This document shows, one piece after another, positions 1,145 to 49,493 of a DNA stretch of 64,000 nucleotides (positions are counted from its first letter, which is position 1; every line of letters starts with the position of its first letter). The position numbers were made by a program, and so were the translations under genes. The DNA comes from a virus, in the IMG/VR virus record IMGVR_UViG_3300024999_000038, positions 64,001-128,000 of that record; one strand, 5' to 3'. The notes beneath the pieces were generated by a model. That model was not told where the DNA came from. It saw nothing but the letters and a program-made list of their open reading frames with translations, and searched no databases.

Positions 1145-4100
1145 AAAGGATAGTTGAGTCATGACTGATGATAAACTTCTAAATGAAAAAATGGCTCAAA
1201 TAAGAGAGCAAGTAATTCAACACAAATTGCAAAAGTTTGAACGAAGAATTAAACCTGTTTTCATATCTTGGATGATTAGTATTATTACTTTAATCTTAAT
1301 ATTGGCTTTTACTAATGTTGCCAATCAATATGTTTCGTATCTAATTTTTATTCTAATGATGTATGTTGGAGCAATTCCTAGTGGTTTGATTTTATATATG
1401 ATATTCAGAGGTTTAAAAAAATTGGCTCGTTAATTATTGAGTTCAAAGATGAGGAGGAAAATATCATGAAATGTCAAGATTGTGGAAGAGAATGTTTTGA
1501 TGATAAATATCCAGAAATAGTATTCAAAGATAAATACCATTGTATCTGTGAAAATTGCAGTATCAACTATTATGAAGATTCAAAAGGTAAAATCAAATTG
1601 AGAGAAAGATTTTAAAGGAGTGGTAAAAATGATCAATACAAATGATTGGATTCATACTGGAGAAACTGAAACGGGGCTACAAATTTTTATCAAAATTGAT
1701 GATTTACATGGAGAAAGATATTTGAAAGTTCAGTATAAAGATCCTAGTGGAAATAAAGTTGGAGAGATGCAATTATACACTGTTAAACAAGTAAGATTGT
1801 TAAACAGTTTAATTGATTCTTGGGATACAGGAATAGAAGGAGGAAATATTATGTTAAATTGGACAAAGATTAATGAAAAAGGTGTTTCAATTAAATGTTC
1901 AAATGAAAATGAGAGAACTATGTTTTTACAAGAATGTGAAAAGGCAAATATCAATTGGAAAAGCGGATTAAAACCAATGGAAGTATCTAAATGTTATAGA
2001 AATATTTCTACAAATTGTGGTGCATATTTGACAGAAGGTTCAGACATAACATTTGACAACATTTATGTTAATTTTTCAGAAGTTTTAATACAGGATAATT
2101 TAGTTTAAGGAGGCAAACACAATGAAAAAGTTAATATGGAAAGACATGAGCAACGAGTCAACATCAATACTTGAATGGTTAGAAAGTCCTGTGACTGATA
2201 AGAAATTAACTCTTACTGTCAAGAAAAATCAAATGTGGTCTAGAGAATGGGGAAATATCAATATCATGGCGACTGAGGATATATTAGATGAAATAAGGCA
2301 ATATGTTAATCAAGAGGATGATATTATTATGGTTGAGGATAATGGAGATAAGTTAATTTTTAGATTGAAATAAGGAGGAAATTATTATGACAATGGATAA
2401 AATGTTCTCTATGTTTTCTAATGAAAAATTAAAGGAAGCTTTTGAAGAGTTTCAAGAACATGAAGCAACACAAGTTCTTAAAGATGGAATTCTAAGAGAT
2501 ATGGTTAATTTAATTGAAGAGCAAAGTCCAAACCAAAATACTATGGTGTTAATGATTAGTGTAGAACATGGATTGCTAAGAGAAATGGCAACAAGATATT
2601 ATAATCTTGCCGAGTCAAAGGAAAATATAGTCATTACTAAGTTACCAGATAAATTCAAATTTAAAAGTACAACTAAAGGAATGCAAGAAGTAATATATAC
2701 AGCAATTAAAGCCGGAAACAGCTATGTCATTACTTGGAATTTCTTAGGAGAAAATCAAGATATGGTCATGAGCGTAGGAACTATGAATTATCATTTTAAT
2801 CAAAATGAATATGAATTTGTTTATGCTTAAAACAAATGAAAGGAAGGATTTAATTGATGTTTAATAAAGTTTTTTATGCCACCATAGATAAGGTTCTAAT
2901 CGAAGAATTTATATTAGAGGTTGGAATGCCACTACCCGTAACTGGTGAATATGTATGCCTCAATGAAAAACATTATCAAGTGACACATCGAGATTTTGAT
3001 TACAGCAAAAAGTTAATTGTTATTATTATTGAATTAACATAAATATACTATTTTATATCCAATAAGAAAGGAGTTTATTGAATGCAATCAATAATGAGAA
3101 CAACTAAAGAAGATACAGAAGTTTTAGATAGAGCAAGAAAAAGAATAAAAATGGGAGATGTCGTTTTATATCAAGATAAAAAACTAAAGAAAATTAAAAA
3201 TGGTTGGGAAGAAGTAGACAATAAAGCATATGCAAAATTAGTTATTATACAGGTTTAAAACAAAATCAATACAAGTAATTGAAATGAGGGGGAAGGATAG
3301 CATGAAAGGGATATATACCGATAAGGATTTATGTCCAGTATGTAAAAGAAGACATATCACATATGATAGAATGGAAGTTACCAATGACAATATCGGAGTT
3401 TGCGGAAAAGAATGTAAAGAAAAACATGATGGAGAAATTGAGTTAAATTGTAAAACTAAATAAACTCCCGAATTCATGCTATCGTAAAATGGAAGGATGA
3501 TTATTAATATGAACTCAGAATTTGAATCAATTGAATCTAGAAAGAAAATCGAATTATCTTTGAATGAACTTAAAAATCTAAACAATGAACATATTTTAAT
3601 TAAATCATTACCAAAATGGTTGAGTGTGAACAAAAAGTGTGAATCTATTGAAGAATATCGGAAGATTAGTTCTGGTACTAAAATATCACCTAAGAAATTA
3701 GATTTGCCTTGGAAATGGAACGAAAACAATTATGGTGAGTATTGGATTGCTTATCTCTGTAAATAAGGTGATAAGAATTCTTAGTATTATAAAATGAAAG
3801 GATGATTATATTAATGGAAAAAATTGATAAAGGATTATTATATGATATTACTGAAAAAATCATTAAACATAACGAGACTGAAGTTGATAACAAATTTAAT
3901 CAACTCTGCGTATGGCAAGGTACTATATTGAAGTAGTCGTAAAATGGGATGAAGAAAATCAAGAATTTGGAGTAGAAACTATTGGTAAATCTGGATTTTG
4001 GTTTACGTTAAAAGAATTCTATAATGCTTGGGATACTAGTATATATAGAACTGGAAATATACTCGAAAGACCAAAGGAAAGATTAATTTAAAAAATATTA

Positions 4101-6376
4101 TAAACTGATTCGACAAAGGGCGAACAGTTAAAAGGAGATTATTAAAATGGGTGTAAGTACATGTGGAGCTTTAAAAAGAGAAGTAACTGCTAAAGAAGTT
4201 TTTGATTTTGTTGTAACCAATTTTGATCAAAAGGCCAAGTTAGAACAAAATTCAACCGACTCTCATTATATTAATTTAAATTATCTAGGCGAAACTAGAT
4301 CCCTTCATATTTACTACGGTAATGATTATAGAGAAGAAACAGATGGATATAGCGCAAATAACGAAATTACTGAGATTAGCGTTAATAAATGGGGTCACGC
4401 AGAACAAATTGTTGAACCAATTGTAAAACATTTTGGAGGTTGGTATATTGCTGATGATTGTATTAGTCATCGAGAAGAACATGTTATCTTTTATGAATTC
4501 AATGTAAGTCCTGATGTTATTACAACTACACCAATTGAAAGATATGTTTTTGATAAATTAGCAGAGGAAAAAGATTGGAAATTAAAAATTAAACTAGCAC
4601 AATTTATTAAAGACAATTTAGATGAGATTAAAACCTTCCAAAGATAGATTTGATGCTATATAAAAATTAAAGGAGTGATACTAATGGTAAAAAGATGTCC
4701 ATTTATATGTAATTCCGAAACTAAATCTAATAGTGGAACTACTGGTAATTTGACTTGTGGTTATTCTGTCACAATTTCTTTTGGAGAGTGTCATGAAGAA
4801 CAATGTCAAGCGTGGGATGTAGAAACTAAAAAATGTTTAAGAATGAATTTTCCTTTTCCTGTAGAAAAATCAACCACTAATCCTATTAATCAAATAGAAG
4901 ATGCCGTTGATTTAACTAAATCATTAACTAAATCTCCTTGTGGAGCAGATACATGTTCTGAATGTCCTGATTACGGTTATGCTAATGAATATCCTTGTCT
5001 AGATTGGAGTGATGCGGAAATTCAACATAGGAAAATGTATCAAAAAAAGAAAGAAGGAAATTAAAATGAGCGAATACTCTCAATTTGCACTAAGTAAATT
5101 ACAAGCACTATCAGAACAAATTATTAAAGATTTAAATTGCTATAGAGTGTCAACATATTGTTATGATAATTCTTTTTGTATCAGTATCAAAAAAGTTTTT
5201 GATTTTTCCAATTTAGAAAGTTTACAAAAAATTAGTAAATCAATAATCGAATATTTCAATATTGAAAATCCAGAAGTTTCGATAAATTCTAAAAGAGAAA
5301 TGTTAATTGTTAAATCTGATAAAATTGAGATAGAAGTAGAAGTTTATAGTTGATGGGATTTTTAGAAAGGTACAATTTTTAAATTAAAAAGGAAGTGATA
5401 ATTTGAGTATCAATATTGCTTGCAAAGGTTGCAAATTTTCTTCTCAATACAAAGGAATTAACAATAGATGGTGTTCATTAAGGAATGGAACTGTCACTAA
5501 TATTCGTAATTGTAAGGATAGGAAAGGATGATAAATTATGAAATTATGGGAGATTGTTAAATTAGTATCCGAAGAACAAATGCTTTGTCAAGGATATAAA
5601 TGGAAAGGTATAAACACACCAATAAACCTGATAATTGAGTTTGATAATGGTTGCTTAGTATATAATACTCTTATGAGTGACACTATTTCTAGAGATCCTG
5701 TATCACTATGCAGCGAAATGTATACTGACTTTGAAAGAATTTAAAAAGGTATTTTTGGGATAATTAAGGAAAGAAGGAATTTAAGATGGTGGAAGCAACA
5801 GGAGTATGTTCAAGATGTAAATATATGTGGTTTGATGTATCTACCCAACCTTGTAGGAATTGCAAAGAGTGTTCTAAGTATGGTGGAACTGAAAACAATT
5901 TTGAAGAGAAAGAAAGTGGTGAATAAAATGAGCTTAGTAACAATGACGGTTAAACAAATAATGGATTTGGGTTTATGGGAAAAGGTTTGTGATTATAAAG
6001 GTTGGAATTTATGGATTGTAAATGAAGGGAAAATTGATTCTTCTGAAGAAGTTGAATTTGACACAGAATTTAAAAAGGAAAATAGTAAGTATCTCGAAGC
6101 ATTGCCAATTTCAATTAAAGATATGGATTTATTTTCATATAATATCAGTTGTACTCCTAGTTATCAAGGTATGTATTTTGGAATCATATTTGCTAAAGAT
6201 AAACAAGATGCATTAGAGAAAATTAATGTACAATATTCTTGGGAAGATGATCTTAAAATAACGTTAGATGATATTACACTTTTAGACTACAATCAATTTG
6301 AAAATGATTGTTATGAAATAGGAAGTCATAGAGAATAGACTACCGGAAAGAAGTAAATTTTAAATACTTTAAATTA

Positions 6377-6664: not shown

Positions 6665-6727
6665 AGACTCTTACTACAGTAGGGTTACAGGATTCTCTAA
6701 ATCCCAAGAAAGACTCATTTCAAAGTT
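6663..6727. repeat. Composite 65-bp site, copy 1
   Basis: AGAGACTCTT-actacag-TAGGGTTACA-ggattctctaaa-TCCCAA-GAAA-gactca-TTTC-AAAGTT. Confidence 0.7.
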
Positions 6728-6958
6728 AGGAGGTTTATCAATGAAATTTTATGAATTTGAACAAAAGAAACCAAAAAACAATAGGGATCTATTAATTCAA
6801 TTTAAAGAATATGGTTGGGGAATTGGAAATACTCTTAGTACAGGTTGTGCTAAATTTGTAGAGGATAAATGCATTATGTTTCCTACTATTTTAGAGATAG
6901 AAATGTCTTTAGATAGAATTGTAAGATGGAGTTATATTTAGAAAGCGAGGGAATATAA

Positions 6959-7527: not shown

Positions 7528-7592
7528 TGAAACCCTTATGGGAGTAGGGTTACAGGGTTTGATACTTAGGATAAAATACTTATTTGAAAGGA
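7528..7592. repeat. Composite 65-bp site, copy 2
   Basis: TGAAACCCTT-atgggag-TAGGGTTACA-gggtttgatact-TAGGAT-AAAA-tactta-TTTG-AAAGGA. Confidence 0.7.
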
Positions 7593-7606
7593 GGATAAAA
7601 AACAAA

Positions 7607-8777: not shown

Positions 8778-8842
8778 TAAGAATCAAGCTACAAACCACT
8801 TTCAGGGTTCACAATATCCCATAAAAATTGCATTTTAAACCA
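8778..8842. repeat. Composite 65-bp site, copy 3 (degenerate left part)
   Basis: TAAGAATCAA-gctacaa-ACCACTTTCA-gggttcacaata-TCCCAT-AAAA-attgca-TTTT-AAACCA. Confidence 0.55.
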
Positions 8843-9549
8843 TCAAAACATTAAGGAGGTAAACTTTTGAAGAATTTTTATTTAACAGATTCAATGAATA
8901 AATCAGAAAAAATAAATGCAACGAAGGAATTTTTAAATGATTATATAGATGAAGTAGAAAATTCTGACAGTGATTATGTAAAATTAAATTGTGGAGAAGC
9001 AGTTGAAATGTATAAATTACTTTTAGAACTTATTAATTTAGCATAAAGAAGGAGAGATTTAATTATGAAAGCAATTGTAAAAGGTAATCAAATCCAATGC
9101 CCAATATGCCAAAACAATGAATTTAATATAGAAGAAGATATTGAAATTAGAGGAACAATAAGAAAGAATTTTGAAGATCATTTGTATAATATCTGCAAAG
9201 ATGAATTGGAATGTAGGAATTGTTGATGGACAGGATATTTTCAAAATAATGTAGATCCTGAAAAAGATTATAAAGCAAATAAAATTACTTATGAAAGATA
9301 ATTATATTCAATTAAAAATTAAAGTAATCCGCAATTGTAAATCCTGCTTATACCACTATATGAAAGACCTAGAGGATGATCAATGTTATGAGAAAGGTGG
9401 TTGTGCTCAATTCTCTCCCATAGGACTTAGACCGAAAGATGTTGAAGTTGTTGTAGAAATTATGTCAGATAAATCCAAACATTCTCTTGAAATACATTAT
9501 GATTAGTGATATGATAAATCAAGAAATAATTATATTGGAGGCATATAAA

Positions 9550-10267: not shown

Positions 10268-10846
10268 ATGGAATTCGTCCAACCAATACGCGACAAAACA
10301 AAAATTGAACAAATGAAACAATATCTAAAATCACATTCACTTAGAGATTATACCCTTTTCACATTAGGAATTAATTCCGGCCTAAGAATATCTGATTTGC
10401 TAAAAATGAAAGTATCTGATGTTGTAAGCGAGGATGGTAAAATTAAGGATCGGATTTCTATTCGAGAGAAAAAGACTGGCAAGGCGAAGACGTTTCCTTT
10501 TAGTCAAAATGTAGTCGAAGCATTAAAAGAATATCTTATCACAATTCCAAGTAATCAAATAATGCTATTTGCTTCTAGAAAAATTGAAGGCTCCGAAGGT
10601 AAAGGTTCCATAAGCAGACAAAGAGCATACACCATATTAAATGAAGCAGCTAAAGCTTGCGACATAAAAGGACAAATTGCGACACATTCACTTAGAAAAA
10701 CTTTCGGATTTATGGCTTATGAAGCTGGAGTGGACATAACTCGTATCCAGTCCATTCTCAACCATTCTTCGCCTAAAGAAACGCTCAGATATATTGGTAT
10801 AACTCAAGATGAACTGGATGACGTTTATTTAGAATTAAACCTTTGA
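10268..10846 (+). CDS. Tyrosine recombinase (catalytic-domain-only, 192 aa)
   Basis: Full catalytic set: GLRISD (R), EKKTGK (K), HSLRKT (HxxR), LNHSS (H), RYIG (Y). Confidence 0.93.
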   Translation: MEFVQPIRDKTKIEQMKQYLKSHSLRDYTLFTLGINSGLRISDLLKMKVSDVVSEDGKIKDRISIREKKTGKAKTFPFSQNVVEALKEYLITIPSNQIMLFASRKIEGSEGKGSISRQRAYTILNEAAKACDIKGQIATHSLRKTFGFMAYEAGVDITRIQSILNHSSPKETLRYIGITQDELDDVYLELNL

Positions 10847-11651: not shown

Positions 11652-14600
11652 AATGTTGATTTCGAAGTATTAAAAGAAGGGGAGTTATTTATTATGAAAG
11701 TAGATGGAGAACCATGCCCATATTGCGGTAAACACACATTTAGTTCTACTCATCTAAACGAGAGTGGAATGTCATATGTTGAATGTTATAAAGAGGATGG
11801 AGGTTGTGGTAGACCATATGTTGTATATGTTCCTGCTCCGACTGTTCAGGCAAGAAAATTAACCGAAGAAGAAATTAACCACATTCAATATATTTATCCT
11901 TGGCACAAAGAATTAAATATGAGTAAATGAAACTTAGCATTTCTGGGAATTAAGAAAGGATGATAAAATGAGTATTAAAAATGAACTATCAAATAAAAAA
12001 GAAAAAGCATTAATATACACTTGGAAGATTAATGATGTCGAACCAAATGAAAAGATAAAAATAAAAGAAATATTTGAGGCAACACCTATTAATGGCTTAG
12101 ATTTATTTAAATGGTGTGCTTTTTGCGGAGCCATGATTGAAAATGCAGAGGAAATAAATTTAGAAGATTATTATTTTCTTGAATTTGTAGGTTGTGGATC
12201 GTACAAAGCAACAAAAGCAGAGAAAAATGAATTGGTAAAAATTATTTCCTCTGTAGCAATGAGCAAAATTTGTGCAGGAGAAAATGTATATCGTAAAGTG
12301 GCAGGACATTATAAATTAGTTGAAGGAGGACATGACATATCAAATATAGCAGATTGGTTTTGTTATGGAGAATGGTATGCTGAAAGTAATTAAACTATAT
12401 AGAAAGGAGTAAGTGGTAATTATGATTAAATGTGAAACATTTGTATTCTTTAAGAATAATGTAAGATCAATTATTGCAATACACATTAAATGTAATTTAT
12501 TCACAAGAACATTTTACCTTGATAAAGAAATTGAATGGGTATCAGGGCCAGTTTATGATTGTATATTAAATAAACAAAAGATTGAGGTAAAATTAGTTAA
12601 TGATGATCCTAAATATGAGTTTCTAGTTGATGTTGTAGAATGGGAAGAACTTAAAACTTATAATGATCAGATTAATGAGTTATTAAAATAGAGAGGATGA
12701 GTAATAAATGAAATTAAATCTAACAATCGTAGGACAATCAATGCAAGAAATAAGAAATGCAATGGATGAATTCATGAAAGAATTTAATGACAATAGATTA
12801 GACAGTAATTGTAATTGGCCTCTTAATGATGGTAAACAAACTGAAATTGATTATGAGTTTACTAATGGAACTGATGTTTTCAATAAAAGCATGGAAGGAG
12901 AAGAGATTGTATATCCATATCAAGGCGAACAATGGTGGGAAGAAATAAGGAAAGAAGTTGTATTGGGAAGGAGTTAAAGTTATGTTAAAATTTGAGGAAA
13001 TGTTTATTAAAGGAAGATCAACAAATATTGAAAATCCTGCTTACAATAATTATTCTCAGTTATGGGAATGGTACAAACTTCACACTGAAAATAAAAAATT
13101 TCTAGAGAAAACTAAAAATAGAAAACCTATAGTAGATTTTAAAATTAGAGATTAATTCCATTCAAACTGCGATTTTAAATGATAATAATTTTAGAAAGAA
13201 GGAATCAAAATGACACTATCAAAAGAAAATTATGATAAATTAAATACTAATTATCTATATAAGAAAGAACCTGTGACTATAGATCATAGTCTTTACATTG
13301 GACGCACACCTATTACATATCATTGTAAGAATTGGACTTTTAAAGTTTATAAATACGATGATGGTAAGGCATATATGAGAGACACCGATTTTAATGATGC
13401 AGGAATTCAAGTCACAGATGAAAATATTGATGAATTTAAATTTGTTTTTGATTTTCGTGAAGTAAAGCAAATTCATGATTCTCATTCAAATGAATACAAT
13501 GAAGAAGATTTATATTATGTAGCTACAAATAGTGGAGGATATTCTTGCGGAGGGTGTTATTGGGTTAATAAAAACACTAAAGAATCTAAAGAATTATTAA
13601 TTGGTAAAAAGAAAAGAGAAATTGGTTCATTAAAAAATAAATTAGAATGGGCAGAAAATGATTTAGTAAGATTATTAGGAGGAATGTAAATATGAAAATC
13701 ACAACAACTTTAGAAGTATCCAAAGAAGAGAAAAATCTAATTCATTCTGCCCTAACAACATATGTTGAACATCTCACCAAAATGCTCTCAGACAGTCCAG
13801 AAAGTGGTTGTAAGACGTTTATTAATACTACCCTAACAAACGCCAATCGTCTATTATCTGAGATGGAATTAAGCTTATAAAGGAGAATAAACGAAATGTC
13901 TGAAACAGAATTATTAATTCAAGAAACAATAATATATCTGTTAGAAATTAGAAAAGATTATTCTAAAAGTGTATCAATGGATGATATTGGGAAAGTAAGG
14001 ACTATAACTAATGCTGTAGAATTATTACATCAGTATTTAGGATTGATGCAATAAAGGAAAGGAGATTAAAAATGAAAAACAATAAATTGACAAAAGAAAT
14101 AAAAGAATTCTTTTCAGAAAAAGGAATCGATAATACACAAGAAAAATTAATTATGTGGTATGGATTTGCAGAATTGCAAATTAAGGAAGATACTTATTGG
14201 AGTCCTTGCGAAAACTGCGATAATCCAAGTTGTAGTAAAACAGAAGATTTTCCAATATGGTTTTGTGCGGATCAGAGATAAGAAAGGAGATTACATAAAT
14301 GTTTTTTTATTTAACTAAACAAAAAGCAGAAGTCAAGAAGGAAAAAATTATTAAAAGAGATGTCAAGAAATTTAAGAAATTATGTTTTAAAGAGTTCAAG
14401 TACAATGTAAGTATGGGCAAAGGTGTTACATTTGTAGATTTTTGTTCAAATGTAAATCATGATTTTCAACATGAGATAGCAAAAATTGTACTAGAAGAAT
14501 TAAAACAAGAACATAAAAACATAGATTTTTCATTTTGTTTCAGACATTGTGAAAATAGTTATCAAGGGATTAAAATGGTGGCATTATGATGTCAAACACA

Positions 14601-26378: not shown

Positions 26379-26450
26379 AAACCTTATTTGATGTGCCCAT
26401 GGTATAAATATAAAAAGTAAATAAAAGAAAGAAAGAAAGAAGGAATAGTT

Positions 26451-35442: not shown

Positions 35443-37657
35443 ATTTAAGGAGGAGGAAAATACATGAAAGACAAACTATTAAACACATTCTCAACTGAAA
35501 GTAATGGAGAAATCATTAGAATCAATATTCTAGAAACAGACAAAGGTATTGTCTTTGATATTGTCGGTAAGTCAATGGATGTTTTTATTAATGGAGAAGA
35601 ATTTTACAGCAAATATGATAAGGAAGAATACAAATATATTCCATCTCATTTAAGAAGTTTTGTTGAAGAAAATATATGTTCTTGTGGAGACGGTTTAGTA
35701 AAAGAGGGATCTGAAGTTCAGTGTGATCTATTATTAGAAGGAAAAGAGTATTTCTTAAAGATTCCAACCAAAAAAGCAAAGAAAAATACTTTGACATTAA
35801 CTGATTGGCTCATTAATTATGAAATGTTAGTAGATGATGGTAAGATTACAGATAAGGAAAAAGAGAAGTTAAAATATAAAGAATTTTTAGATTTAGTAAA
35901 AGGTTTTGGATATGAAATGAAAGTTAGTCATGGTGGTAACGATTATGATAACTGGTATAATTTAGTAATTCCCATTAATGATTTTGATTTAGACAAAATT
36001 AAGAAATGTTTGAAATTGTGGCAAGAATATAACCAATATTTAATTGACAACTATTTAGATGGGAAGTATTAGAGAAGGGAGATTTGGATGATGGATGTTC
36101 CAAAAATGTCTAAGAAAGAATTAGAAGAGTTAAGTAAATTGGTTGAATTGCAAAAACAACTATTGAAAGATGAAGAAGTAAACAAATTAAAAGAGAAAGC
36201 AAAAGTAAAAATTGAAAAACTCAGAGAACAAAAAGATTTGATCCTTAGTTTAATTGATCATAGCAGAACTTCTTGTAGTGATTCAAATGTTTGTAATGGA
36301 TATGACTCTGCTGATTATGGTGCTAGGTGTACGAAATGTCATTTGATTGAATTATTTGATCAAGAATGGTCTGATGGTGAGTGGGAAATTGATTTTCATG
36401 TTACAATAACTAAGGTGCAATAATCCTTCGAATCGTGAATTTTCTGGGAAAGGGAGTGAAAAAATGTTAAGAGGTTGTGAATTAGATCATCTTAATAAGA
36501 ATAATTATGTTTATATCGGAGGAAGTTATGACGGTTTTGTATGTGTTGCAAAAGAATTGTGGTATGCTTTATTAAATAGTGAAGAAAATCAAAAATTAAT
36601 CAAATCAATGAAAAACAAAGCCGAGTAAAATTAAGTTTTAATTGAAAGGGAGTAGTACATATGAATTTATTAGGTGTAACTGTAAATATTTCTGCTGAAA
36701 AATTGAGAGTAGAGATATCTAGGAATGAAATCATTAAAGAAACTGACAAATCATTTAAAATGAAGAATACTAATGATTTGCTTTTTAGATGTTTAACTCT
36801 CATACCAAAAGATATTATTGGCAAGATTCAAAAAGGACATTACGGCGATCATGTTAACAGTTTTGAAAGAACTGTATGGGTTATAGAGAATGACAACGTA
36901 ACCGAACAATCTTTGATAGAAAGACTTAAAGGAGAAATAAGAAAAGAGTTGGATATTAGGAAAAATCATCTTGACAAAATGATAAGCAATATCAACAAAG
37001 AAATGGAGGATTAAATATGCAAGTAGGGGACAATATTTATCTAAAACCAACCAACAACGCAGCTAGACGAACTTCTGAAATTAGAGAATGGAAAATCAAA
37101 TCTGTTGGAAGAAAATATTTTGAAGCATGGGATGGAGAACGGGATCATTCTGCTATGAAGTTTTATATTGAAGGTTTTAAACAAGTTACAAAATATTCTC
37201 CAGATTGGGTTGTATACTTTTCTAAACAAGAAATCTTAGATGAAAATGAATTTTATAAACTCTTTAATGATATCAGAATATTTTTTGGAGGTTATAGCAA
37301 ACCGAAATTAACATTAGAACAATTAAGGAATATTAAAAAGATCATTGATAGCGAATGAAATTATTCATTTATGGTACTAGAAAGGATTGATAAAATTGTA
37401 CAAACCAATTCCATTTATACAATTTTTTAAAACAAAAAGAGTTATAGAAATTGCTGATTTGATAGTTACTAAAATTGAATCGTCTGAACAATATTATATT
37501 CATAAATTTAGATATAGTAATTATTATAGAATTGGAGATATTATTAGTAAAAAGGAATTTGAAGTTATTTTATCTAAGGCTAAGAATCCAATTGTATTAA
37601 GTGATATTTACATTGATTTAGAACTGAAATAGTTTTCGTATAATTCAAATATAATTA

Positions 37658-37686
37658 TTGTATTCTATCTAACAACATGATACAAT
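37658..37686 (+). promoter_or_regulatory. SigA-type promoter of uvsE
   Basis: TTGTAT-17-TACAAT with extended TG. Confidence 0.55.
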
Positions 37687-37719
37687 AATTATATTAAGGT
37701 TATTAGGAGGAATACATAA

Positions 37720-38601
37720 ATGATCAGACATGTCGGATTCGCCTGTATGAGTAAAAAGTGTAACACTAAATATCAAACATTCCGATTAGCATCATTCAGT
37801 GAATACAGGTCGCGTCAAGCAATTGCTCACAATCTAAAAGAAACTGAGCGTACAATTCAACATTGTATTTCAGAAGGAATTAAATTATTCAGAATAAGTT
37901 CTGATTTAGTTCCATTTGCTACACATGAAATCATGAAAGATATTGATTATATTTCTTGGATTGAATCTGATTTAAAAAGGATTGGTGATATAGCAAGAAA
38001 TAATAATATGCTATTATCTATGCATCCATCTCAAATGTGTTGTATAAACAGTCCAAAACAAGAAGTTGTAAATAATTCTATCAAAGATTTAATGTATCAT
38101 TATGATATTCTTAATACTATGGGCCTTACTGATTTTAATATTATCATTCATGTTGGTGGAGTTTATGGTAATAAATTAGAAGCAAAGAAGAGATTTGTTA
38201 GTGTATTTAATAGTTTGCCTGTTGATTTAAGAAATCATATCTTGCTTGAGAATGATGACAAAAGTTATACTGTTAATGATATAATGGAAATACACAAAGA
38301 AACTGGAGTTAGACTAGTGCTAGATTTTCACCACAATGTTTGTAATAATGATGGGACAGAATTAGATTTAGAAGCTGTATTTGCCACTTGTGGGGTTGGT
38401 AAAGTACCTAAGATACATCTTAGTTCACCTAAGAGTATTAAAGAGTTCAGAAGTCATTCTGACATGATTGATTATGAATATTGTAGAGAGTTCTTTGAGA
38501 AGTATAAGGGATTAGAATTTGATGTTATGATTGAGGCTAAGGATAAGGATTTAGCTGTAGAGAAGTTTATTGAGGATTATAGGAGGGAGATGAGATTATG
38601 A
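37720..38601 (+). CDS. uvsE: UV damage endonuclease (UvsE/UVDE)
   Basis: GFAC, FRISSDLVPFATH, SMHPSQ, IHVGG.YG.K, LENDD, DFHH, KIHLSSP, HSD, DVMIEAKDKD motifs. Confidence 0.95.
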   Translation: MIRHVGFACMSKKCNTKYQTFRLASFSEYRSRQAIAHNLKETERTIQHCISEGIKLFRISSDLVPFATHEIMKDIDYISWIESDLKRIGDIARNNNMLLSMHPSQMCCINSPKQEVVNNSIKDLMYHYDILNTMGLTDFNIIIHVGGVYGNKLEAKKRFVSVFNSLPVDLRNHILLENDDKSYTVNDIMEIHKETGVRLVLDFHHNVCNNDGTELDLEAVFATCGVGKVPKIHLSSPKSIKEFRSHSDMIDYEYCREFFEKYKGLEFDVMIEAKDKDLAVEKFIEDYRREMRL

Positions 38602-39365
38602 TTATTAGTTTTGATAAAATAGTAGAAAGATTTATATCTGCACAAGGAATAAGAGCAGTTGTATTAAAAACTGAATTTATTAATGAAAGTGAATGCGAAA
38701 TATCTTTACGTGGAGGATTTTCAACAAATGTAAAAGTAATTGAAGACAAATTGTATAAAGATGATATGTTATATTGCAGAGTTGAAGATTTGTTTTTATT
38801 CGGTTAAACAGTCCCAGAAAAGTGTGGTTTTAAGCTAAGTGAGAAAGGAGTAATTTTATGCAAAAGGAAATGGATTATTCTGTTTGGGTAACTTTAGATA
38901 ATAAGCGTTTAAAGATATCTGAAATGACCACAGATCATATTAAGAACTGTATTAAAATGATTAAACGTAGTAAATTTTTAGATGTTATGGAGCGTTATGA
39001 TACAGTTCCAGAACCACCTCCAAGATATGTAGTTGACTATGATAAATATAAACCATATTTAAAAACTTTTAAGAATGAATTAGAAATACGTTGAAAGTGT
39101 AAATATAATTGTTTAGGAGGGTTTTTATGGATATAAATGTATTTAATATCAAATGTACTAAATGCAATCAAGGAGTATTCATAGGTAAAGCATTCGAAGA
39201 AAAATGTGATCATTGCGGAGAAAACATTTCGGATGAACTCATCGTTGCTTGTTTGGAAAATGTAAGCGAAGAATTAAAGAAATAGTGTTTACCATGAACA
39301 TCTAGTTTTATCTTGAGAGTTTTAAAATAGCTGTTGTCTTGGATATAATTTATTTCTAAAGAGGA

Positions 39366-39560
39366 GTGGCAAAAATGGAATTGAAATGTGGAGATGTTGT
39401 TCAATTAAAAAGTGGTGGGCCAGTAATGACTGTTGTAGAAGTAGCTAAATTTAGAAGTTATAGTGATGGTGAACAAGCAAAATGCACATGGTTCGATAAA
39501 ACTGGGATTAAGAAATTTGATGATTTATTTGAACTGGAGACACTTGAAATTGTAGGTTAA
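39366..39560 (+). CDS. YodC/DUF2158 family protein
   Basis: GDVVQLKSGGPVMTV...CTWF...F..ETL. Confidence 0.85.
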   Translation: MAKMELKCGDVVQLKSGGPVMTVVEVAKFRSYSDGEQAKCTWFDKTGIKKFDDLFELETLEIVG

Positions 39561-39644
39561 TTAGTTGTAGGAAATGAATTCTAAGGCAACAGTTATTTTA
39601 AAACTCTTAAATTTTTAATTAGAGAAGAAAGAGGGAAATTTATT

Positions 39645-40160
39645 ATGAAATCAACAGGTATTATTAGGAGAATAGATGACTTAGGAAGGGTAGTAATTCT
39701 TAAAGAAATTAGACGAACTTTAAGGATTCATGAAGGAGATCCAATGGAATTATGTGTGCATGAAGGTGGAGTATTTTTAAAGAAGTATTCTGCATTAGGT
39801 GAAATGATAGATTATGCTCAAAACTTTGCTGATACATTATTTGAACAAACTGGCCATATTGCTTTAATTTGTGATAGCGATGTTGTAATTGCTGTATCTG
39901 GAACGTCAAAAAGAGATTTTTTAAATAAACCAATTTGGAATTTAGCATCTAAAGCAATGGAAGAAAGATTAACATTAACTGGCCTTAAAGATGGAATACA
40001 AGAAGAATTTGAATATGAAAATCAAATTGTTACACCAGTAATTTGTGAAGGTGATGTAGTAGGAGCAATAGGGTTAGTAGCGAAAGAAGAAGTTGGAATT
40101 GTAGAACAAAAACTAGTTCAATCTGTTGCAAGATTTTTAGCGAAACAAATGGGACAATAA
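39645..40160 (+). CDS. spoVT: SpoVT-like regulator (AbrB N-terminal domain + GAF domain)
   Basis: MKSTGIIRRIDDLGRVVI.KEIRRTLRI.EGDP...LKKYS...GDVVGAI...FLAKQM. Confidence 0.9.
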   Translation: MKSTGIIRRIDDLGRVVILKEIRRTLRIHEGDPMELCVHEGGVFLKKYSALGEMIDYAQNFADTLFEQTGHIALICDSDVVIAVSGTSKRDFLNKPIWNLASKAMEERLTLTGLKDGIQEEFEYENQIVTPVICEGDVVGAIGLVAKEEVGIVEQKLVQSVARFLAKQMGQ

Positions 40161-42309
40161 AGGAGTAGTAAATATGAAATGTGAATTCGGATTATGTGCA
40201 TTTGAAAGCACTGGATCTTGTTTAGTTGTAGAATCATGTAAACAATGTGATTATGGTAAACTTGTTTTTAAAAGTTTACCATTACAAGTTGTTAAAACTG
40301 ATAAATCAAGTCAAGTTTGTCAAGTTTGCAATGTAAATGTTAACAGTAATTATTGCTCTAATTGTGGGCAAAAGTTAAAATACTAAACACTCAAAACGAG
40401 GATTTTAAGCTATTAAAGGAGGGATAATTAAATGAAAATTATTACTAAGAGCAACTACGACGATGAAAGGCTTAGTGAATATGTTGTCGCCGAAGGACTC
40501 AATCAGTATTATGGTAAACTAATTTATGACTTTTTACTTAATAGTACAGATAAACGTGATAGTAGTATCTTTGAATTGGTTGAAGATAATTATATATTGT
40601 ATGAATTCGAACCGTGAAAAGGAGAGGCATTATGAATAAAAACCAAAAGATATTATTAAAGGCACTAGAAACAATAACTAATTCGGTGTTATTTTTAGAA
40701 GATGCTCAAAATATTATTGAGAAAATAACTAAAGAAGAAGTTTCAGAGGTAATTGCTAAATTTTCAAACAAGATTATACCTTTTGACGAAGATAGTCTTT
40801 ATCAAGATTCTTATAATTTTCAAGGGTATGCAGATAGTATAATTGGTGGCGTAGTGAATAAGATTGGTGAAAATTAATATACTTTAAATCTAAGAATCTA
40901 TCGGGTTAGGAGTTGAAATATGTTTATTATAGAAGGTAAGTCTGGCAAATCTAGAATATTAGAAACAGCAGTTAATGAATTACCAGAAGGTAATTGTATT
41001 GTTATAGATTCTGTGGGTGTTCCTATAGACTGGAATAGGACTATTTTTGCTTTCGATTTTAGAAGTATGTCTCACGATTCTATTATTAATTGGTTAAAAG
41101 TGTCTTTGGGAAAATATATAAATGAGGAAGAAACACTAGTATTGGAAGTAAATTGTCCAAAAGATAAATTAAATGATTATTTAGAACTGGAGAATATTTT
41201 AGGTTTCCAAAGATATATGATTACTGTACAAAATAATGAAATTGATGATATTTTACAATATAATGTAATTTTGTAATCCAAGGAAACTTTGATTTTAATT
41301 GAGAAAGGAAGATAAGCTAATGAGTAAGATCAAAATTATGACCGATAATGTTGAAAGTTTTCAAAAATGTTCAGAGATTATAAAAGTATTCAAAGAGAGT
41401 TTCAAAAGTTCAATTAAGTATATTGAGGATAATGGGTTATATATTAGAATTCATGTCGATGTGAATAATCTTTCAGATCAACTTTGTCTACCTGAAAATT
41501 ATAAGCATAGCACTTCGATTAAAATTGAATCAGAAAGCAAAATGAGTGTATCATTAAATGGTCATTTGTTGATTGAGGAAAAAGATTATCATATTGTAAT
41601 TGAAGCAACGGCATATAAGAATTTGGAAATATGTTAGCGTATAAAGAGGAGAATCTATAATGCCAAGAAAATACGATGTAAATAATATCAATCTACAAAT
41701 AGACAATATAGATTTTTGGTCTGCTCATACTGGTAATAAGGGTGGAATGAGAATCTATTGGAGTGCTGATATTGGATATGGTCAACTTGATATTGTTAAA
41801 CGTAGTGGTAATGATGGTGAGGGTAGAGATATTCTAGAAGGAGCATTAGAAGAGGAATTAGTATTAATTGTAGATACTGAACGAATGGATCATGAAGATG
41901 ATAAAGAATTTACGAGTAAGATTATGAGTTTGTTGGTTGAGATGTTGAAAGTTACTGGGTAAATGATTGTTTATTGTTAATTTTAGTTCATTATTTGCAT
42001 TAAATCTTAATAATTACATCTAATTAAACAATATATTATTTAAAAATAAATATTTAAAGGAGATTGTAATATGTATTATGTTTACACAATTTGTATGAAA
42101 AATGGAAAAGAATACAAAACCGAAGTCAAACAAAATCTTAATGAATTAATAAATCAACTTATGCCACAATCTTTAAATGAAATTAAAATATTTAATTGTA
42201 ATTTATTTAATGGAGAAGGCAGAAGCGTAGCAATAATCGGGAGTGAAGTATCAAGCATTGAATATCTTGTTACAAAAGAATCTGTTCTTGCAAGTATGTA
42301 AATAATTAT

Positions 42310-42338
42310 TTGTTTTACTATACATTACATGCTATAAT
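42310..42338 (+). promoter_or_regulatory. SigA-type promoter
   Basis: TTGTTT-17-TATAAT with extended TG. Confidence 0.5.
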
Positions 42339-42670
42339 GAATACAGAAATAAATATTTAGGAGTGATGATACATAAATGACATCAGGTGATGGAATAAGA
42401 AGTTGTATACATAGGCATTCATTATCTACAAGTTTTAAGATTATTCCTGAAGGTGAAAGAAAAATTAATTATGCTCCAAATATAAAATATGAGTGTCCTG
42501 TCTGCGGTGGACATAATGTAAATAAATTACCAAGTAATTTTCTATATTGTTTAGACTGTGGCTGTGAAATTGATCAGAGTGGGAAGGCATATACGATTCA
42601 ATGGGATGGTACTTTGACTGATTATTATGTTAATGAATTTGAGAATTGTGGATAAGGAGAGATTACATAA

Positions 42671-43354
42671 ATGATTTTTATCACTGGTGATCGTCATGGA
42701 TCAAAAGGAATGTCAAGATTAAATTCAGATAATTTTCCAATCAACAAAGAATTAACAAAAGATGATTATGTAATTGTTACAGGTGATTTTGGTGTAGTTT
42801 GGAATGGTGATAAAGAAGACAAATATTGGTTAAATTGGTTACATGAAAAGAACTTTACAATTTTGTTTTGCGATGGAAATCATGATGGTCATGATATATT
42901 AGATAATCTTCCAGTTTCAGAATGGAATGGCGGTAAAGTACATTTTGTCAATGATAGTGTAATTCATTTAATGAGGGGTCAGGTCTTCAATATCAATGGC
43001 AAAAAGATATTTACTTTTGGTGGAGCTGATTCAATTGATAAAGCAGATCGTAAAAGAGGAATTGATTGGTGGGAACGTGAGATGCCATCTACTTCCGAAT
43101 ATGAGGATGGTTTAGACAATTTAGACAAGTGTGATTGGAAAGTTGATATTATTGTTTCGCACGACTGTTCAACAAGAATTTTTGAAAAATTAATGGCTGG
43201 ATTATACGTAAAGAGTTTAACTTCAATTAACAAGTATTTTGAGGTCTTAGAAGAGAGATTAGATTATAAGCAATGGTATTTTGGACATTATCATGAAGAC
43301 AAATGGATTGATGATAAACATAGGTTAATTTATAATGATATTATAATGTTATAA
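42671..43354 (+). CDS. Calcineurin-like metallophosphoesterase (second family)
   Basis: TGDRHG, GDFG, DGNHD, SHDC, WYFGHYH motifs. Confidence 0.9.
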   Translation: MIFITGDRHGSKGMSRLNSDNFPINKELTKDDYVIVTGDFGVVWNGDKEDKYWLNWLHEKNFTILFCDGNHDGHDILDNLPVSEWNGGKVHFVNDSVIHLMRGQVFNINGKKIFTFGGADSIDKADRKRGIDWWEREMPSTSEYEDGLDNLDKCDWKVDIIVSHDCSTRIFEKLMAGLYVKSLTSINKYFEVLEERLDYKQWYFGHYHEDKWIDDKHRLIYNDIIML

Positions 43355-43689
43355 GAAAGATGAGGGAGGAATTTTAATGTATTTTATTACTGGAATTGAG
43401 AAACTAGATAAAGATTATGGTATTAAAGGAAGTAGATGTTTCGGTTACAAGAAAACATTTGAAGAAGCAGATTTGGCGGTAAAAGAAAATCATTGTGACA
43501 TCAATGAAACAATTTATGATTATGCTGTGATTGAGTTGATTGAAGATGGAATACATCAGATTTGTTGGAATGATAAGAGATGGTTTTATAAGTTTGATTA
43601 TGATAAGGGTATTTATGAGGCGATTGATGAGCCGGAAGAGGTTAAGGGATTGTGTAATTTTAGTATTGGGTAGAATGTAAAAATAAAAC

Positions 43690-43718
43690 TTGACTTAAAT
43701 TGATAAATAATATATACT
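43690..43718 (+). promoter_or_regulatory. SigA-type promoter
   Basis: TTGACT-17-TATACT. Confidence 0.6.
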
Positions 43719-43865
43719 GAACACAAGGTAAATCAAAAAATACATAAGTTAAATATTAAAGGATGTGAAAATAAATGTGGGTAAGAGGTCATACATAACT
43801 AAGCAAATTTATTTCAATTACTAATCACATTGAATCATAAAATAAATATATTGGAGGAATTAAAA

Positions 43866-45974
43866 ATGGATTTTAAAGAATTTAAAGCACTGCAACAAAA
43901 ACACGTTTCCGAAATGTTAAAAAATGCTACTCACTTATTTGAGGTTGGTTTAAACAAAGATGCTTTATATGACCTGTATTTATCGAGTTTCCCACCAGGA
44001 ACGAATGAAATGTTTAGAAATAGAAGAGAATTTGATTGTGGTTGTTGTAGACAATTCATTAAAAATATTGGAAATGCAGTTATTACCAAAGACAACAAAA
44101 TTACAACTATTTGGGACTTTGAAACAAATGATTCAACATTTCAACCAGTAATTAATGCTCTATCAAAATACATTAAATCTCAAGTTGTTTCAGATATTTA
44201 TGTCACTAAGTTTAAAAAGATTGGAACTGATAAGAATTTTGAAAAAGGTGTAAACGGAGGAATAACTGAATGGCAACACTTTTTTCTTGAACTGCCTAGT
44301 AAATTTGTTGATACAAGTGGAAAATCAGAAGGAGATATCAAAGGTGGTTATAGGGATACAAGAAATGTATTCAAAAGATCATTAGATGAAATTACTGAAG
44401 AAAGTTTACTTACTGTATTAGAGCTTATTTCTCAGAACAGTTTATATAAAGGAGAAGAATGGAAAGCAGTATTAAATGAGTTTCTTAAATATAAGAAAGC
44501 ATATGATAAACTCAAAACTAATAAAGCAAAAGAAATTTATGCTTGGGAGCAATCTGTAAAAGTTGGTGGTTCTATCGGAAGAATTAAAAACCATTCAATT
44601 GGAACATTGCTTATCAATATCAGCGAAGGAATGGATTTAGATTTGGCAGTTAAGAAATATGAAGCGATTGTGGCTCCGTTGAACTATAAGCGTCCAAAGG
44701 CTATATTCACCAAGAAAATGCTAGAAGATGCTAAGAAAACAATTCAAGAATTAGGATATATGGATTCATTAAATCGTAGATTTGCTACACTTGATGATAT
44801 TACTGTGAACAATATCTTATTCTCAAATAAAGATTCTGCCAAAAGAATAAATGGTTTAGATATTTTTGATGAAATGACTAGCAATATTCCTGTTAATCCT
44901 AAAAAATTCTCTAAGGTTGAAGAAGTTTCTATTGATAATTTTATCAAGGATATTTTACCTACAGCAAAAGAATTAGAGGTATTTCTAGAGAATAAACATG
45001 CGAGCAATATGGTATCTTTAATCGCTCCTGAGAATAAGGATTCAAAAACAATGTTTAAGTGGGATAATTGTTTCAGTTGGGCATACTCAGGAAATATCAC
45101 AGATTCAGACTTGACAGAAAGAGTAAAAGCTGCAGGAGGAAGAGTTGATGGTGTTTTAAGATTTTCTCACAGTTGGAATTACGATGGTATGAGAAATGGT
45201 TCATTAATGGATTTACACGTATTTATGCCAGGATCAAGTCAATCAGTAACTATGAAAAGTGGTAAAGAAATACATGATAATTATGGCAATGATAAAAGAG
45301 TCGGTTGGAATCATAGAAATAATTATGAGTCTGGAGGTGTTCAAGATGTAGATTATGTAAATATTGCTCCAGTTGGATATATTCCAGTAGAAAATATTAC
45401 TTTTCCATTAATAGATAGACTAAAGGAAGGAATCTATATATTTAAAATTCATAATTGGAGTTTAAGACAACCTACAACGGGTGGATTTAAAGCGGAAATA
45501 GCATTTGGTGGACAAGTGTATAAATTTGAAAGAAAAGAACCACTGGGGCATAAAGAATGGATTACTTTAGCAAAATTAGAACTTAAAAATGGAGAATTTA
45601 AAATATTGGAAATGATGGAAAATGACACAGTACCAATCGAAGTTTGGGGAATTAAAACCCATCAATTTATTCCGGTTTCAGTTGTTTGTAATTCTCCTAA
45701 TTATTGGAATGAGCAACAAGGCATTGGACACAAACATTATATGTTCATGTTAAAGAATTGTATCAATTCAGAATTGCCAAATGGATTCTTCAATGAGTTC
45801 TTAAAACAAGATTTAGTTCAACATAAAAAAGTATTTGAGGCATTAGGTGCAAAAATGGCGGTTAAAGATGTTAATGACCAACTTAGTGGAGTTGCATTCA
45901 GTTCAACCAAGAGAAACGAATTGTTAGTTAAAGTTAAAGGGCAAACAGAAAGAGTAGTCAAAATTAAATTCTAA
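43866..45974 (+). CDS. Large hypothetical phage protein (~702 aa)
   Basis: ATG 43866 after GGAGG; CGCCR motif; C-terminal RFSHSWN..MDLH segment reminiscent of DUF2135/YfaP-like domains. Confidence 0.7.
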   Translation: MDFKEFKALQQKHVSEMLKNATHLFEVGLNKDALYDLYLSSFPPGTNEMFRNRREFDCGCCRQFIKNIGNAVITKDNKITTIWDFETNDSTFQPVINALSKYIKSQVVSDIYVTKFKKIGTDKNFEKGVNGGITEWQHFFLELPSKFVDTSGKSEGDIKGGYRDTRNVFKRSLDEITEESLLTVLELISQNSLYKGEEWKAVLNEFLKYKKAYDKLKTNKAKEIYAWEQSVKVGGSIGRIKNHSIGTLLINISEGMDLDLAVKKYEAIVAPLNYKRPKAIFTKKMLEDAKKTIQELGYMDSLNRRFATLDDITVNNILFSNKDSAKRINGLDIFDEMTSNIPVNPKKFSKVEEVSIDNFIKDILPTAKELEVFLENKHASNMVSLIAPENKDSKTMFKWDNCFSWAYSGNITDSDLTERVKAAGGRVDGVLRFSHSWNYDGMRNGSLMDLHVFMPGSSQSVTMKSGKEIHDNYGNDKRVGWNHRNNYESGGVQDVDYVNIAPVGYIPVENITFPLIDRLKEGIYIFKIHNWSLRQPTTGGFKAEIAFGGQVYKFERKEPLGHKEWITLAKLELKNGEFKILEMMENDTVPIEVWGIKTHQFIPVSVVCNSPNYWNEQQGIGHKHYMFMLKNCINSELPNGFFNEFLKQDLVQHKKVFEALGAKMAVKDVNDQLSGVAFSSTKRNELLVKVKGQTERVVKIKF

Positions 45975-46526: not shown

Positions 46527-47564
46527 ATGGGAAGATTGCCGGGTAAAAGAAAATTTCTAACAGGTCAAGTATTTGGACATTTAAAAGTTTTAAAAGAAGT
46601 CCATTCTGAAAAATATGGAAAAGCATGGTTAGTTGAGTGTGATTGCGTTAATAAAACTCAACAAGAGGTAGATACTACGAGATTAACTAGTGGTATAAAA
46701 CAACATTGTGGTTGTCTAAAAGTATATAAAAAGCGAAGCGAAATTAAATTGCCTTCAGAATATATAAATAAAACTAAAATATGTAATCAATGTGGAATAG
46801 AAAAAGTATATGGGGATTTTTATTCAACGGAATATATAAATTCAGAGAATATACAAATATATAAATTTGATTCAAGATGTACAGAATGTGTTAAGGAAAA
46901 TTCTAAGAATAGAATATTAAATAATCGTGAAGATCATTTAAAAGCATTGAAAATAAACAATGCCAGAGAAGAAACTAAAGAAAAAGTTAGAATATGTGGT
47001 AAAAGATATAGAAGTGGTGAAAAATATGTGGCATGGAAAGATAAGAACGCATATAGATTTAAGATTTATAGTGACAAGCACAGAGTTCACGACATTACAG
47101 AGGAAGAGTGGAGAGGATGTTTAATTGCATTTAATAACACCTGTGCATACTGTGGACTGCCAATTGAAGAACATATTATAAAACGAAATGGCAAATACAT
47201 AATTATGAAATTTCACAAAGAACATGTAGACGATAAGGGTTATAATGATTTAAGGAACGGAGTACCATCTTGTAGATCGTGTAATAGTAGCAAACACACT
47301 TCTAGTTTAGAAGAATGGTATTTTAAACAAAAATTCTTTTCTATGGATAGATATATCAAAATACTGTGGTGGACGAACGAAGAATATAAAGATTATATTG
47401 AAGAAAAACCACCATATAGAATTGTTAAGAAAAAGAACGATGACAATAATAAATTTCATCATGAACTTTGGTCGGTTGACGAAATGAGAAATTTTATTGA
47501 AATTATAACCACAGGAATAAAGAAAGAAGATATTAACATTTATATTGCTAATAATAATTTGTAG
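46527..47564 (+). CDS. Free-standing HNH endonuclease, paralog of 18629-19543
   Basis: LTGQVFGHLKVL...CDC...CGC N-domain; CAYCG...HKEH...PSCRSCNSSK. Confidence 0.8.
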   Translation: MGRLPGKRKFLTGQVFGHLKVLKEVHSEKYGKAWLVECDCVNKTQQEVDTTRLTSGIKQHCGCLKVYKKRSEIKLPSEYINKTKICNQCGIEKVYGDFYSTEYINSENIQIYKFDSRCTECVKENSKNRILNNREDHLKALKINNAREETKEKVRICGKRYRSGEKYVAWKDKNAYRFKIYSDKHRVHDITEEEWRGCLIAFNNTCAYCGLPIEEHIIKRNGKYIIMKFHKEHVDDKGYNDLRNGVPSCRSCNSSKHTSSLEEWYFKQKFFSMDRYIKILWWTNEEYKDYIEEKPPYRIVKKKNDDNNKFHHELWSVDEMRNFIEIITTGIKKEDINIYIANNNL

Positions 47565-49428: not shown

Positions 49429-49493
49429 TAAAATCATTGCAGGAGTAGGCTTTCAGGGTTCGGTACATGGCATAAAACATGTCTTTCGTTGGA
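49429..49493. repeat. Composite 65-bp site, copy 5 (last junction site seen)
   Basis: TAAAATCATT-gcaggag-TAGGCTTTCA-gggttcggtaca-TGGCAT-AAAA-catgtc-TTTC-GTTGGA. Confidence 0.7.

Follow-up and report, generated by a model that had tools for sequence, protein, structure and literature searches.

Introduction

The mosaic genomes of phages are usually explained by random illegitimate recombination together with selection, or by homologous exchange in shared genes. In T4-type phages, the PeSL cassettes consist of a sigma-70-type promoter and a terminator stem-loop, and any two copies recombine by homology, giving mini-circles (Arbiol et al. 2010, PMC2839356). Here we describe a 28-bp dyad that recurs at gene ends in a large phage, G0, which is a 150,268-bp IMG/VR record (IMGVR_UViG_3300024999_000038; 29% G+C, estimated to be 71% complete). 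The stretch analyzed, called the window throughout, comprises bases 64001-128000 of this record (64,000 nucleotides), and positions are those of the window unless another record is named. An initial annotation of the window had noticed an imperfect inverted repeat between small genes and had proposed an integron- or pdif-like array of gene cassettes. We find that each dyad has its own six-base centre, that these centres are kept in map order between related phages, and that homology between relatives ends inside the dyads, which may serve as joints for the exchange of the genes between them.

Several other systems offer a comparison. An 11-bp arm, a 6-bp spacer, and a second 11-bp arm make up the geometry of the dif-type tyrosine-recombinase sites, and many copies of such dif/pdif sites flank small modules that differ between related replicons. 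Xer sites are asymmetric, with a XerC side and a XerD side, and alternate in orientation around the modules. Strand exchange by tyrosine recombinases requires matching centres. In laboratory cassette exchange with heterospecific lox or FRT sites, engineered as 13-8-13 and shown to be acted on by Cre or Flp, the arms are identical and the spacers different, and only sites with the same spacer recombine, which gives an ordered replacement without deletion. In integrons, small genes without promoters of their own are lined up in one orientation, every gene has an imperfect inverted repeat behind it, and a tyrosine recombinase is encoded close by; the attC sites (57-141 nt) are folded single strands with extrahelical bases, and the cassettes enter at attI in an order that is not conserved. 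Temperate phages also carry dispersed, repeated protein-binding sites, such as the SPBRE sites of MrpR (YopR) in SPbeta and the stoperators of mycobacteriophage L5.

The closest genomes to G0 that were available for comparison were G1 (IMGVR_UViG_3300024999_000034, 181 kb), G2 (167 kb, complete, with terminal repeats), and G3, a 66-kb fragment. A megablast of the window against the phage collection gave no match.

Results

The Repeat Is a 28-bp Dyad at Gene Ends

The first alignment of the 43 sites listed in the initial annotation contained extra information outside the core, with C-C 5-6 bases left of it and G-G on its right. Seeded with these sites and iterated, a weight matrix yielded 64 sites genome-wide in G0, with the consensus ATCCNWTGAAA, six variable bases, TTTYAWNGGAT (28 bp, 11-6-11). 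The information content lies at positions -6 to 4 and 11 to 21, flanking the six variable bases. The specificity resides only in this full dyad with its TCC/GGA arms. The bare core RAAW-N6-WTTY was not enriched (304 copies versus about 431 in dinucleotide shuffles), and neither AA-N8-TT nor AAA-Nn-TTT was enriched over dinucleotide shuffles in the AT-rich genome of G0, where no spacing stood out. With the full matrix, 37 matches of at least 14 bits were observed versus 0-2 in block shuffles, and sites absent from the seed set, many of them outside the window, scored up to 21.5 bits.

In a leave-one-out analysis with a register shift of +-2, 32 of the 43 listed sites reached at least 8 bits, a score attained by 0.056% of genome positions. 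The other 11 (3041, 5365, 5743, 6347, 14751, 19762, 32572, 34154, 39296, 39587, and 41960) are weak sites or non-members, and four sites had been missed (centres at 2844, 4645, 9805, and 32321). At the looser cut-off of 8 bits the window contains 40 dyads, and independent support comes from the 24 of them that have a collinear partner with an identical centre in G1 or G3. The inverted repeat that had been noticed at the outset is real and far beyond chance, as a full 28-bp dyad and not as its bare core.

The placement of the repeat at gene junctions was likewise confirmed. The stop codon of a gene starts at motif positions -25 to +10 for 64% of the dyads of at least 11 bits, versus 8% of random positions; it most often stands immediately before the left arm (-8 to -10) or is formed by the T(G/A)A of TGAAA (position 0). 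From the centre to the next start codon downstream, the median distance is 38 nt. Since sigma-A-like promoters are visible in a few long intergenic gaps only, the dyads are internal to operons, and they lie between the stop codon of one gene and the ribosome-binding site of the following gene. Among the 34 window dyads of at least 11 bits, the median spacing is 1.1 kb, and the intervals hold from 1 to 10 genes with a mode of 1. There are zero dyads in the lysogeny and signalling region, from 49480 to the end of the window, in line with the first reading of this region as free of the motif.

The Centres Are Junction-Specific and Kept in Map Order

No two of the 64 centres of G0 are the same, and no centre is a palindrome. 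As a set they are more widely dispersed than shuffles (nearest-neighbour distance 1.86 versus 1.67 +- 0.09), and their G+C content is 43% versus 29% for the genome. Between G0 and G1, 39 dyads have an identical 6-nt centre, and 37 of these fall in one collinear chain. When the centres were permuted in 1000 trials, the chain had a mean of 9.8 and a maximum of 14, and control 6-mers taken 30 nt to either side gave 13-14 matches and a chain of 5. The comparison of G0 with G3 gave 20 identical centres (chain of 19) and that of G1 with G3 gave 24, all in one chain.

The sequences around the matched centres are not conserved in the same way. In 36 collinear pairs, the left flank was at the random level (~0.3) in 32 and the right flank in all 36, and the outer arms of matched pairs had identities of 0.48 and 0.55 versus an all-against-all baseline of 0.42 and 0.48. 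With identical centres and background flanks and arms in the same pairs, the part that is variable between junctions is therefore the part that is conserved between phages. The variable spacer had been taken as a sign of mismatch tolerance or as the scar of single insertions. This view is not supported, as the spacer is specific to its junction, unique in the genome, and kept in map order from phage to phage. Four more large phages, found via the small recombinase described below, carry 10-17 dyads per 20 kb, with centres collinear with those of G0. By a crude 10-mer test, the centres could be traced within the clade G0/G1/G3/L108-L111 only.

Homology between G0 and G1 Ends at the Dyads

The genomes of G0 and G1 form a mosaic of short collinear homologous pieces, and 68 of the 262 plus-strand genes of G0 have a homologue in G1. 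Consecutive shared centres delimit 35 intervals. By tblastx, homology is absent from 17 of these, covers part of 16, and covers most of 2; the interval lengths differ up to about three-fold between the two phages. Beside conserved genes, homology halts at the spacer edge, the left arm accompanying the upstream gene and the right arm the downstream one. At the centres 4645 and 16788 the left arm and the spacer continue the upstream gene, and at the centres 16374 and 7579 the spacer and the right arm continue into the downstream gene (Table 1).

Only 4% of the ends of blastn high-scoring segment pairs in the G0-G1 comparison come within 15 nt of a dyad. As such pairs break off within genes that have diverged, they test the point poorly, and the informative tests are those at the level of genes and of spacers. 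In the groundwater contigs, two joints touch dyads (28949 to 30423 and 36642 to 38819), with sides of only 20-22 letters, and contig ends do not coincide with dyads.

SPbeta and phi3T Have the Same Architecture

G0 is a distant SPbeta-like phage and is probably temperate. Its genes are on the minus strand up to about 31 kb of the genome and on the plus strand from there to the end. The minus-strand genes include those for the portal, the terminase, a helicase, and an open reading frame (ORF) of 898 aa. The placement is based on the portal, which is 35% identical to SPbeta-group portals, on the 898-aa ORF, which is YonO-sized and matches phrog_8308, and on the YopQ/MrpR module (Table 1).

In SPbeta (NC_001884), TAAAA-N6-TTTTA occurs 34 times versus 0-3 times for every other spacing from N2 to N11. 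The SPbeta dyads have outer arms of the type TCTAGA / TCTAGA and are sited at gene ends. Between SPbeta and phi3T, 41 centres are identical, and 39 of these are collinear. Homology is present on both sides of 20 of the 41, on one side only of 12, and on neither side of 9. In a 3.2-kb block of 99.97% identity (SPbeta 83687-86899), the left boundary coincides exactly with the TAAAA of one dyad and the right boundary follows the TTT of a second, and other blocks begin or end inside the dyads at 87603, 92747, 113536, 113654, and 131142. In total, 7 of 46 megablast block ends are within 18 nt of a dyad centre, a distance at which about 2% of random positions are estimated to lie (1.1% are within 10 nt). 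The gain, loss, or replacement of genes between relatives is bounded by dyads in both pairs, G0/G1 and SPbeta/phi3T, as had been expected of cassette boundaries. No description of these dyads was found in the literature, including the SPbeta genome-comparison, hybrid-phage, and MrpR papers.

The Dyad Is Read by Sequence on Duplex DNA

The base composition of the G0 strand is skewed (A 40%, T 31%, G 19%, and C 10%). Despite this skew, the base frequencies of one arm mirror those of the other, degenerate positions included (A/C/T at -2 and T/G/A at 17). No co-variation of the arms was found: Watson-Crick pair counts equal the column-shuffle expectation at every stem position, and the excess of G-U over A-C pairs is only that predicted by base composition, with no compensatory changes. 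On average about 5.4 of 10 stem positions pair. The mean folding energy of the dyads is -2.2 kcal/mol, versus -2.4 kcal/mol for chimeric arms (left of one site and right of another) and -1.6 kcal/mol for shuffles. An RNA hairpin was rejected on the lack of co-variation and on a folding no better than that of the chimeric arms. A promoter or terminator was also rejected, as promoter-like matches numbered 124 versus 135 in shuffles, with none tied to dyads, and there was one terminator-like hairpin in 20 kb. Arms that mirror each other and vary independently are therefore read by sequence on duplex DNA, and the element is a sequence-read dyad, not a selected hairpin, promoter, or terminator. The tyrosine-recombinase-like geometry claimed at the outset was upheld, with 11-bp arms, a 6-bp spacer, and a dyad of the double-stranded type.

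Candidate Proteins

A small tyrosine recombinase of 192 aa is encoded in the middle of the array (Table 1); part of it matches IntI4 weakly (E 2e-4). Its homologues in G1, G3, and four other dyad-bearing phages have 63-68% identity to it, and that of G1 occupies the same slot. SPbeta and phi3T encode two other orphan tyrosine recombinases, YopP and YomM, for which no function was found to have been assigned and for which tblastn of the SPbeta proteins against G1, G3, and the 71% complete G0 gave no match. The enzyme acting at the dyads could be the resident 192-aa recombinase in the G0 clade, YopP or YomM in SPbeta, a host Xer protein, or a nuclease together with a phage annealing protein.

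The repressor MrpR (YopR) has a tyrosine-recombinase fold, and G0 encodes a homologue. As read from ten SPbeta promoter regions, SPBRE is CAAATACAAAWAATATGTATA, unlike the dyad. Chromatin affinity purification sequencing (ChAP-seq) in SPbeta located MrpR at ten sites only, all SPBRE promoter regions (PMC10516654). With a different target sequence and these ten peaks only, the dyads are unlikely to be MrpR sites, and stoperator-like sites of an MrpR-like repressor were set aside as an explanation. The MrpR/YopR-like protein of G0 is probably not the dyad binder either. In the aimR promoter region of SPbeta, a dyad (TAAAATTGGAATTTTA) lies 5 nt upstream of SPBRE (L106:26171-26215, corresponding to 76171-76215 of the SPbeta record), and the resolution of ChAP-seq is insufficient to separate the two at this promoter.

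Features of the Window

The features of the window are collected in Table 1. Sequences that resemble, by eye, sigma-A promoters of the TTGACA-17-TATAAT type are present in the long gaps at 19952-20278, 27401-27770, 34845-34927, 37358-37720, 42301-42671, and 43673-43866, so that the accessory tract probably consists of several operons. A second short repeat, GTAGGGTTACAGGGTT (0-2 mismatches), occurs on the plus strand at 6679-6694, 7544-7559, and 49445-49460, some 20-35 nt upstream of three dyads; about 0.2 matches would be expected by chance. A perfect hairpin with a 14-bp stem (ATCCTGAAACCATT ... AATGGTTTCAGGAT) is found at 35374-35408 and is closely followed by the dyad centred at 35429. No other terminator-like structure was seen between 24 and 44 kb of the window, and this one was called on the minus strand.

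The genes of the accessory tract include a C-5 cytosine DNA methylase (26481-27401) and a UvdE UV-damage endonuclease (37720-38601), amid small unknown genes. Three paralogous HNH endonuclease genes (18629-19543 and 46527-47564 in the window and 53024-53926 in the genome) are each about 37-41% identical to SPbeta YoqL. Several HNH copies are scattered in G1 too (G1 85891, 107522, and 126752), and these may be mobile endonuclease genes within the array. Relatives of a 714-aa protein of G0 (43830-45974) are encoded in more than 500 IMG/VR stretches.

The stretch is contained in four groundwater metagenome runs, all from one study and with no RNA run among them. For positions 24001-44000, the summed contig depth in the groundwater runs ranged from about 25 to more than 1000, with its peak over the UvdE gene. 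Single genes of the array seem to be common to many related phages in the groundwater sample.

Table 1: Features of the window with their coordinates, and partners of selected dyads in G1 and G3.
Feature	Position	Strand	Remarks
Dyad	362-389		40th window dyad, outside the array span
Dyad array	2831-49494		39 of the 40 window dyads (at least 8 bits, 28 bp each), in long co-oriented plus-strand operons of small genes
Dyad, centre GATAGA	4632-4659		Stop codon TAG in spacer; left arm and spacer as in G1; homology stops at right edge of spacer
Dyad, centre GACTCA	6701-6728		Same centre collinear in G1 (86959) and G3 (13361); flanks unrelated
Dyad, centre TACTTA	7566-7593		13-nt core as in G1; upstream unrelated; downstream gene 82% identical
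Dyad, centre ATTGCA	8816-8843		Collinear partners in G1 and G3; 3.1 kb to next shared centre in G0 versus 10.6 kb in G1
Small tyrosine recombinase	10268-10846	+	192 aa, catalytic domain only; Arg, Lys, His-x-x-Arg, His, and Tyr all present; candidate enzyme
Dyad, centre CTGCGA	13156-13183		21 bits; partners in G1 and G3
Dyad, centre GACATC	16361-16388		Left arm unrelated to G1; spacer and right arm run on into conserved downstream gene
Dyad, centre CACAAC	16775-16802		Left arm and spacer as in G1, continuing conserved upstream gene; homology stops at right edge of spacer
Dyad, centre GAAGGG	29584-29611		21 bits; best palindrome of the set
Dyad, centre CGTGAA	36423-36450		Bounds, with the next dyad (36619-36646), a slot for a single 54-aa gene; slot contents of G0 and G1 without detectable homology
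Dyad, centre CTTTGA	41276-41303		Partners in G1 and G3; outer arms differ
Dyad, centre ATCAAA	47564-47591		Partners in G1 and G3
Dyad, centre CATGTC	49467-49494		Last of the array; partner in G1; next dyad beyond the window end
YopQ/DndB-like gene	57650-59020		Directly before the MrpR/YopR-like gene, same order as in SPbeta
MrpR/YopR-like protein	59037-60080	+	Recombinase fold; Pfam PF22822 N-terminal domain

Discussion

The dyads have likenesses to each of the systems described above and match none of them in full. Like the PeSLs, they recur as short elements between genes in the hyperplastic regions of a large phage genome, and they bound the insertions, deletions, and replacements by which relatives differ in their small non-essential genes, for G0/G1 as for SPbeta/phi3T. 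They differ in having no promoter or stable hairpin, and each 28-bp copy has a unique, map-ordered centre. They have the length and the 11-6-11 layout of dif/pdif sites, but their arms are symmetric, they are located in phage operons at stop codons, and their spacers are junction-specific. The logic proposed here for the dyads is that of the heterospecific lox and FRT sites, from which they differ in being natural 11-6-11 sites with a putative enzyme and a predicted dependence on the spacer. With SPBRE and the L5 stoperators they have in common a dispersed occurrence in a temperate phage. SPBRE is found at about ten promoters and the dyads inside operons, and the stoperators are asymmetric 13-mers without a junction-specific part.

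We give about an even chance to the explanation that the dyads are protein-recognized, double-stranded DNA joints for an ordered exchange of cassettes between related SPbeta-like phages. The two inverted arms, with a consensus common to all junctions, would be recognized by their sequence, in the simplest case by one protein bound in two copies, and the dyads would be position-specific joints at which related phages trade the intervening genes. Since the centre is common only to equivalent junctions of different phages, an exchange that requires matching centres would join like with like only. Cassettes would be swapped, the gene order would be kept, and deletions within one genome would be avoided. 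Such joints would account for the conserved order, for centres that are unique, non-palindromic, and G+C-rich, for arms that travel with the neighbouring gene, and for homology that ends in the core. Cleavage by a tyrosine recombinase at the spacer edges is predicted from the geometry and from the position of the homology ends. A fuller form of this explanation, which we regard as possible but not probable, is that the SPbeta-like phages have a natural heterospecific-site cassette exchange. A dedicated recombinase would act on dozens of sites with common arms and a private 6-bp crossover region, and co-resident relatives would swap any slot by a double site-specific crossover, with order and integrity enforced.

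Several observations weigh against the exchange of cassettes at matching dyads. At the SPbeta/phi3T junction 87603, the left arm is joined to a different centre, one carried by SPbeta 0.8 kb further on; matching centres are therefore no absolute rule, and units are also lost or gained between unlike sites. In favour of the joints, the genes that flank a junction are also adjacent in G1 at 0 of 16 informative dyad junctions versus 21 of 88 non-dyad junctions, but this test is confounded because the dyads lie in a hypervariable tract where most adjacencies are broken anyway. Among relatives L007-L086, centre 10-mers were no commoner than control 10-mers in a crude exact 10-mer test, and the same crude test did not detect the centres in relatives with 57-70% identity in the 714-aa protein. 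The enzyme is a further difficulty. A tblastn of SPbeta with the 192-aa recombinase found no detectable homologue, though SPbeta has dyads, and more distant homologues of this protein sit in unrelated phages of about 35-90 kb without G0-type dyads. No recombinase common to the G0 clade and SPbeta was found except the MrpR-like repressor, and MrpR in SPbeta is reported to bind at ten SPBRE promoter regions only. Finally, the identical core of 12-16 bp (AAA, centre, and TTT) could support short-homology recombination without a site-specific enzyme. Sequence data cannot separate site-specific from short-homology exchange, and binding, cleavage, and exchange at the dyads are predictions.

This last point is at the heart of another explanation, possible although we would not call it probable, in which the dyads are operators of a dimeric phage DNA-binding protein, as in the alternative named by the initial annotation, with a regulatory or architectural role within operons, for example as a roadblock or silencer of the kind formed by the L5 stoperators, and recombination at the dyads (RecA or Sak4-type) is a by-product. 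Symmetric arms that do not co-vary and are read by sequence would suit an operator, as would a position internal to operons, after the stop codon of one gene and before the ribosome-binding site of the next gene. The homology ends are scattered through the shared 16-bp core and not fixed at one bond, and a short sequence common to otherwise unrelated neighbours could allow homologous or annealing-type joining of mosaic segments, as proposed for the PeSLs. The latter are repeated intergenic regulatory elements able to drive modular shuffling (PMC2839356), and SPbeta encodes, according to its annotation, a Sak4-like annealing protein. An operator gives no reason for a spacer that is better conserved between phages than anything around it while the arms drift to baseline, nor for spacers that are all distinct, non-palindromic, and enriched in G+C. 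An identity of 12-16 bp is also very short for homologous recombination. The master repressor MrpR, moreover, was reported at SPBRE promoter sites only (PMC10516654).

The integron- or pdif-like array initially proposed, in which the recombinase at 10268-10846 or the host XerC/D would excise and insert single cassettes as circles within one genome with tolerance of spacer mismatch, now appears improbable. What stands of it is the site geometry and the cassette boundaries; the arrays do share with integrons the co-oriented small promoterless genes and the repeat after each unit, an intact recombinase lies inside the array, and the SPbeta/phi3T difference at unlike centres resembles the loss or gain of a unit between two dyads. 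Not supported are an attC-like fold, the meaning given to the spacer, the enzyme, and the asymmetry of the arms expected of XerC/XerD sites. No attI-type primary site was seen, and in place of an IntI-type integrase with attI and Pc at the end of the array, the sole array recombinase is the 192-aa protein at mid-array. Unique centres would block recombination within one genome by a homology-dependent enzyme, free insertion would scramble an order that is in fact conserved, and SPbeta has dyads without a detectable homologue of the recombinase. No reliable circle or deletion joint was seen in the contigs, where the two joints that touch dyads have short sides. An RNA element, that is, a hairpin in the polycistronic mRNA for processing, message stabilization, or coupling of translation, would fit the position of the dyad on the transcribed strand and its self-complementary consensus. 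We find it very improbable in view of the folding energies, of the pairing counts, and of the conservation of centres between unrelated genes, which it leaves unexplained.

Conclusions

A family of large temperate phages, from groundwater phages of 29% G+C to SPbeta, marks its gene junctions with a common palindrome and a private, map-ordered centre. Dyads addressed in this way point to an organized, site-directed exchange of accessory genes; those of SPbeta-like phages include genes for DNA repair, methylases, and nucleases. As the feature is present in both SPbeta and phi3T, the idea is directly testable in Bacillus subtilis. If a spacer-addressed enzyme were found, it would be a ready-made multiplex tool for cassette exchange, and a heterospecific-site exchange system, if true, would represent a new mode of programmed modular evolution in viruses.

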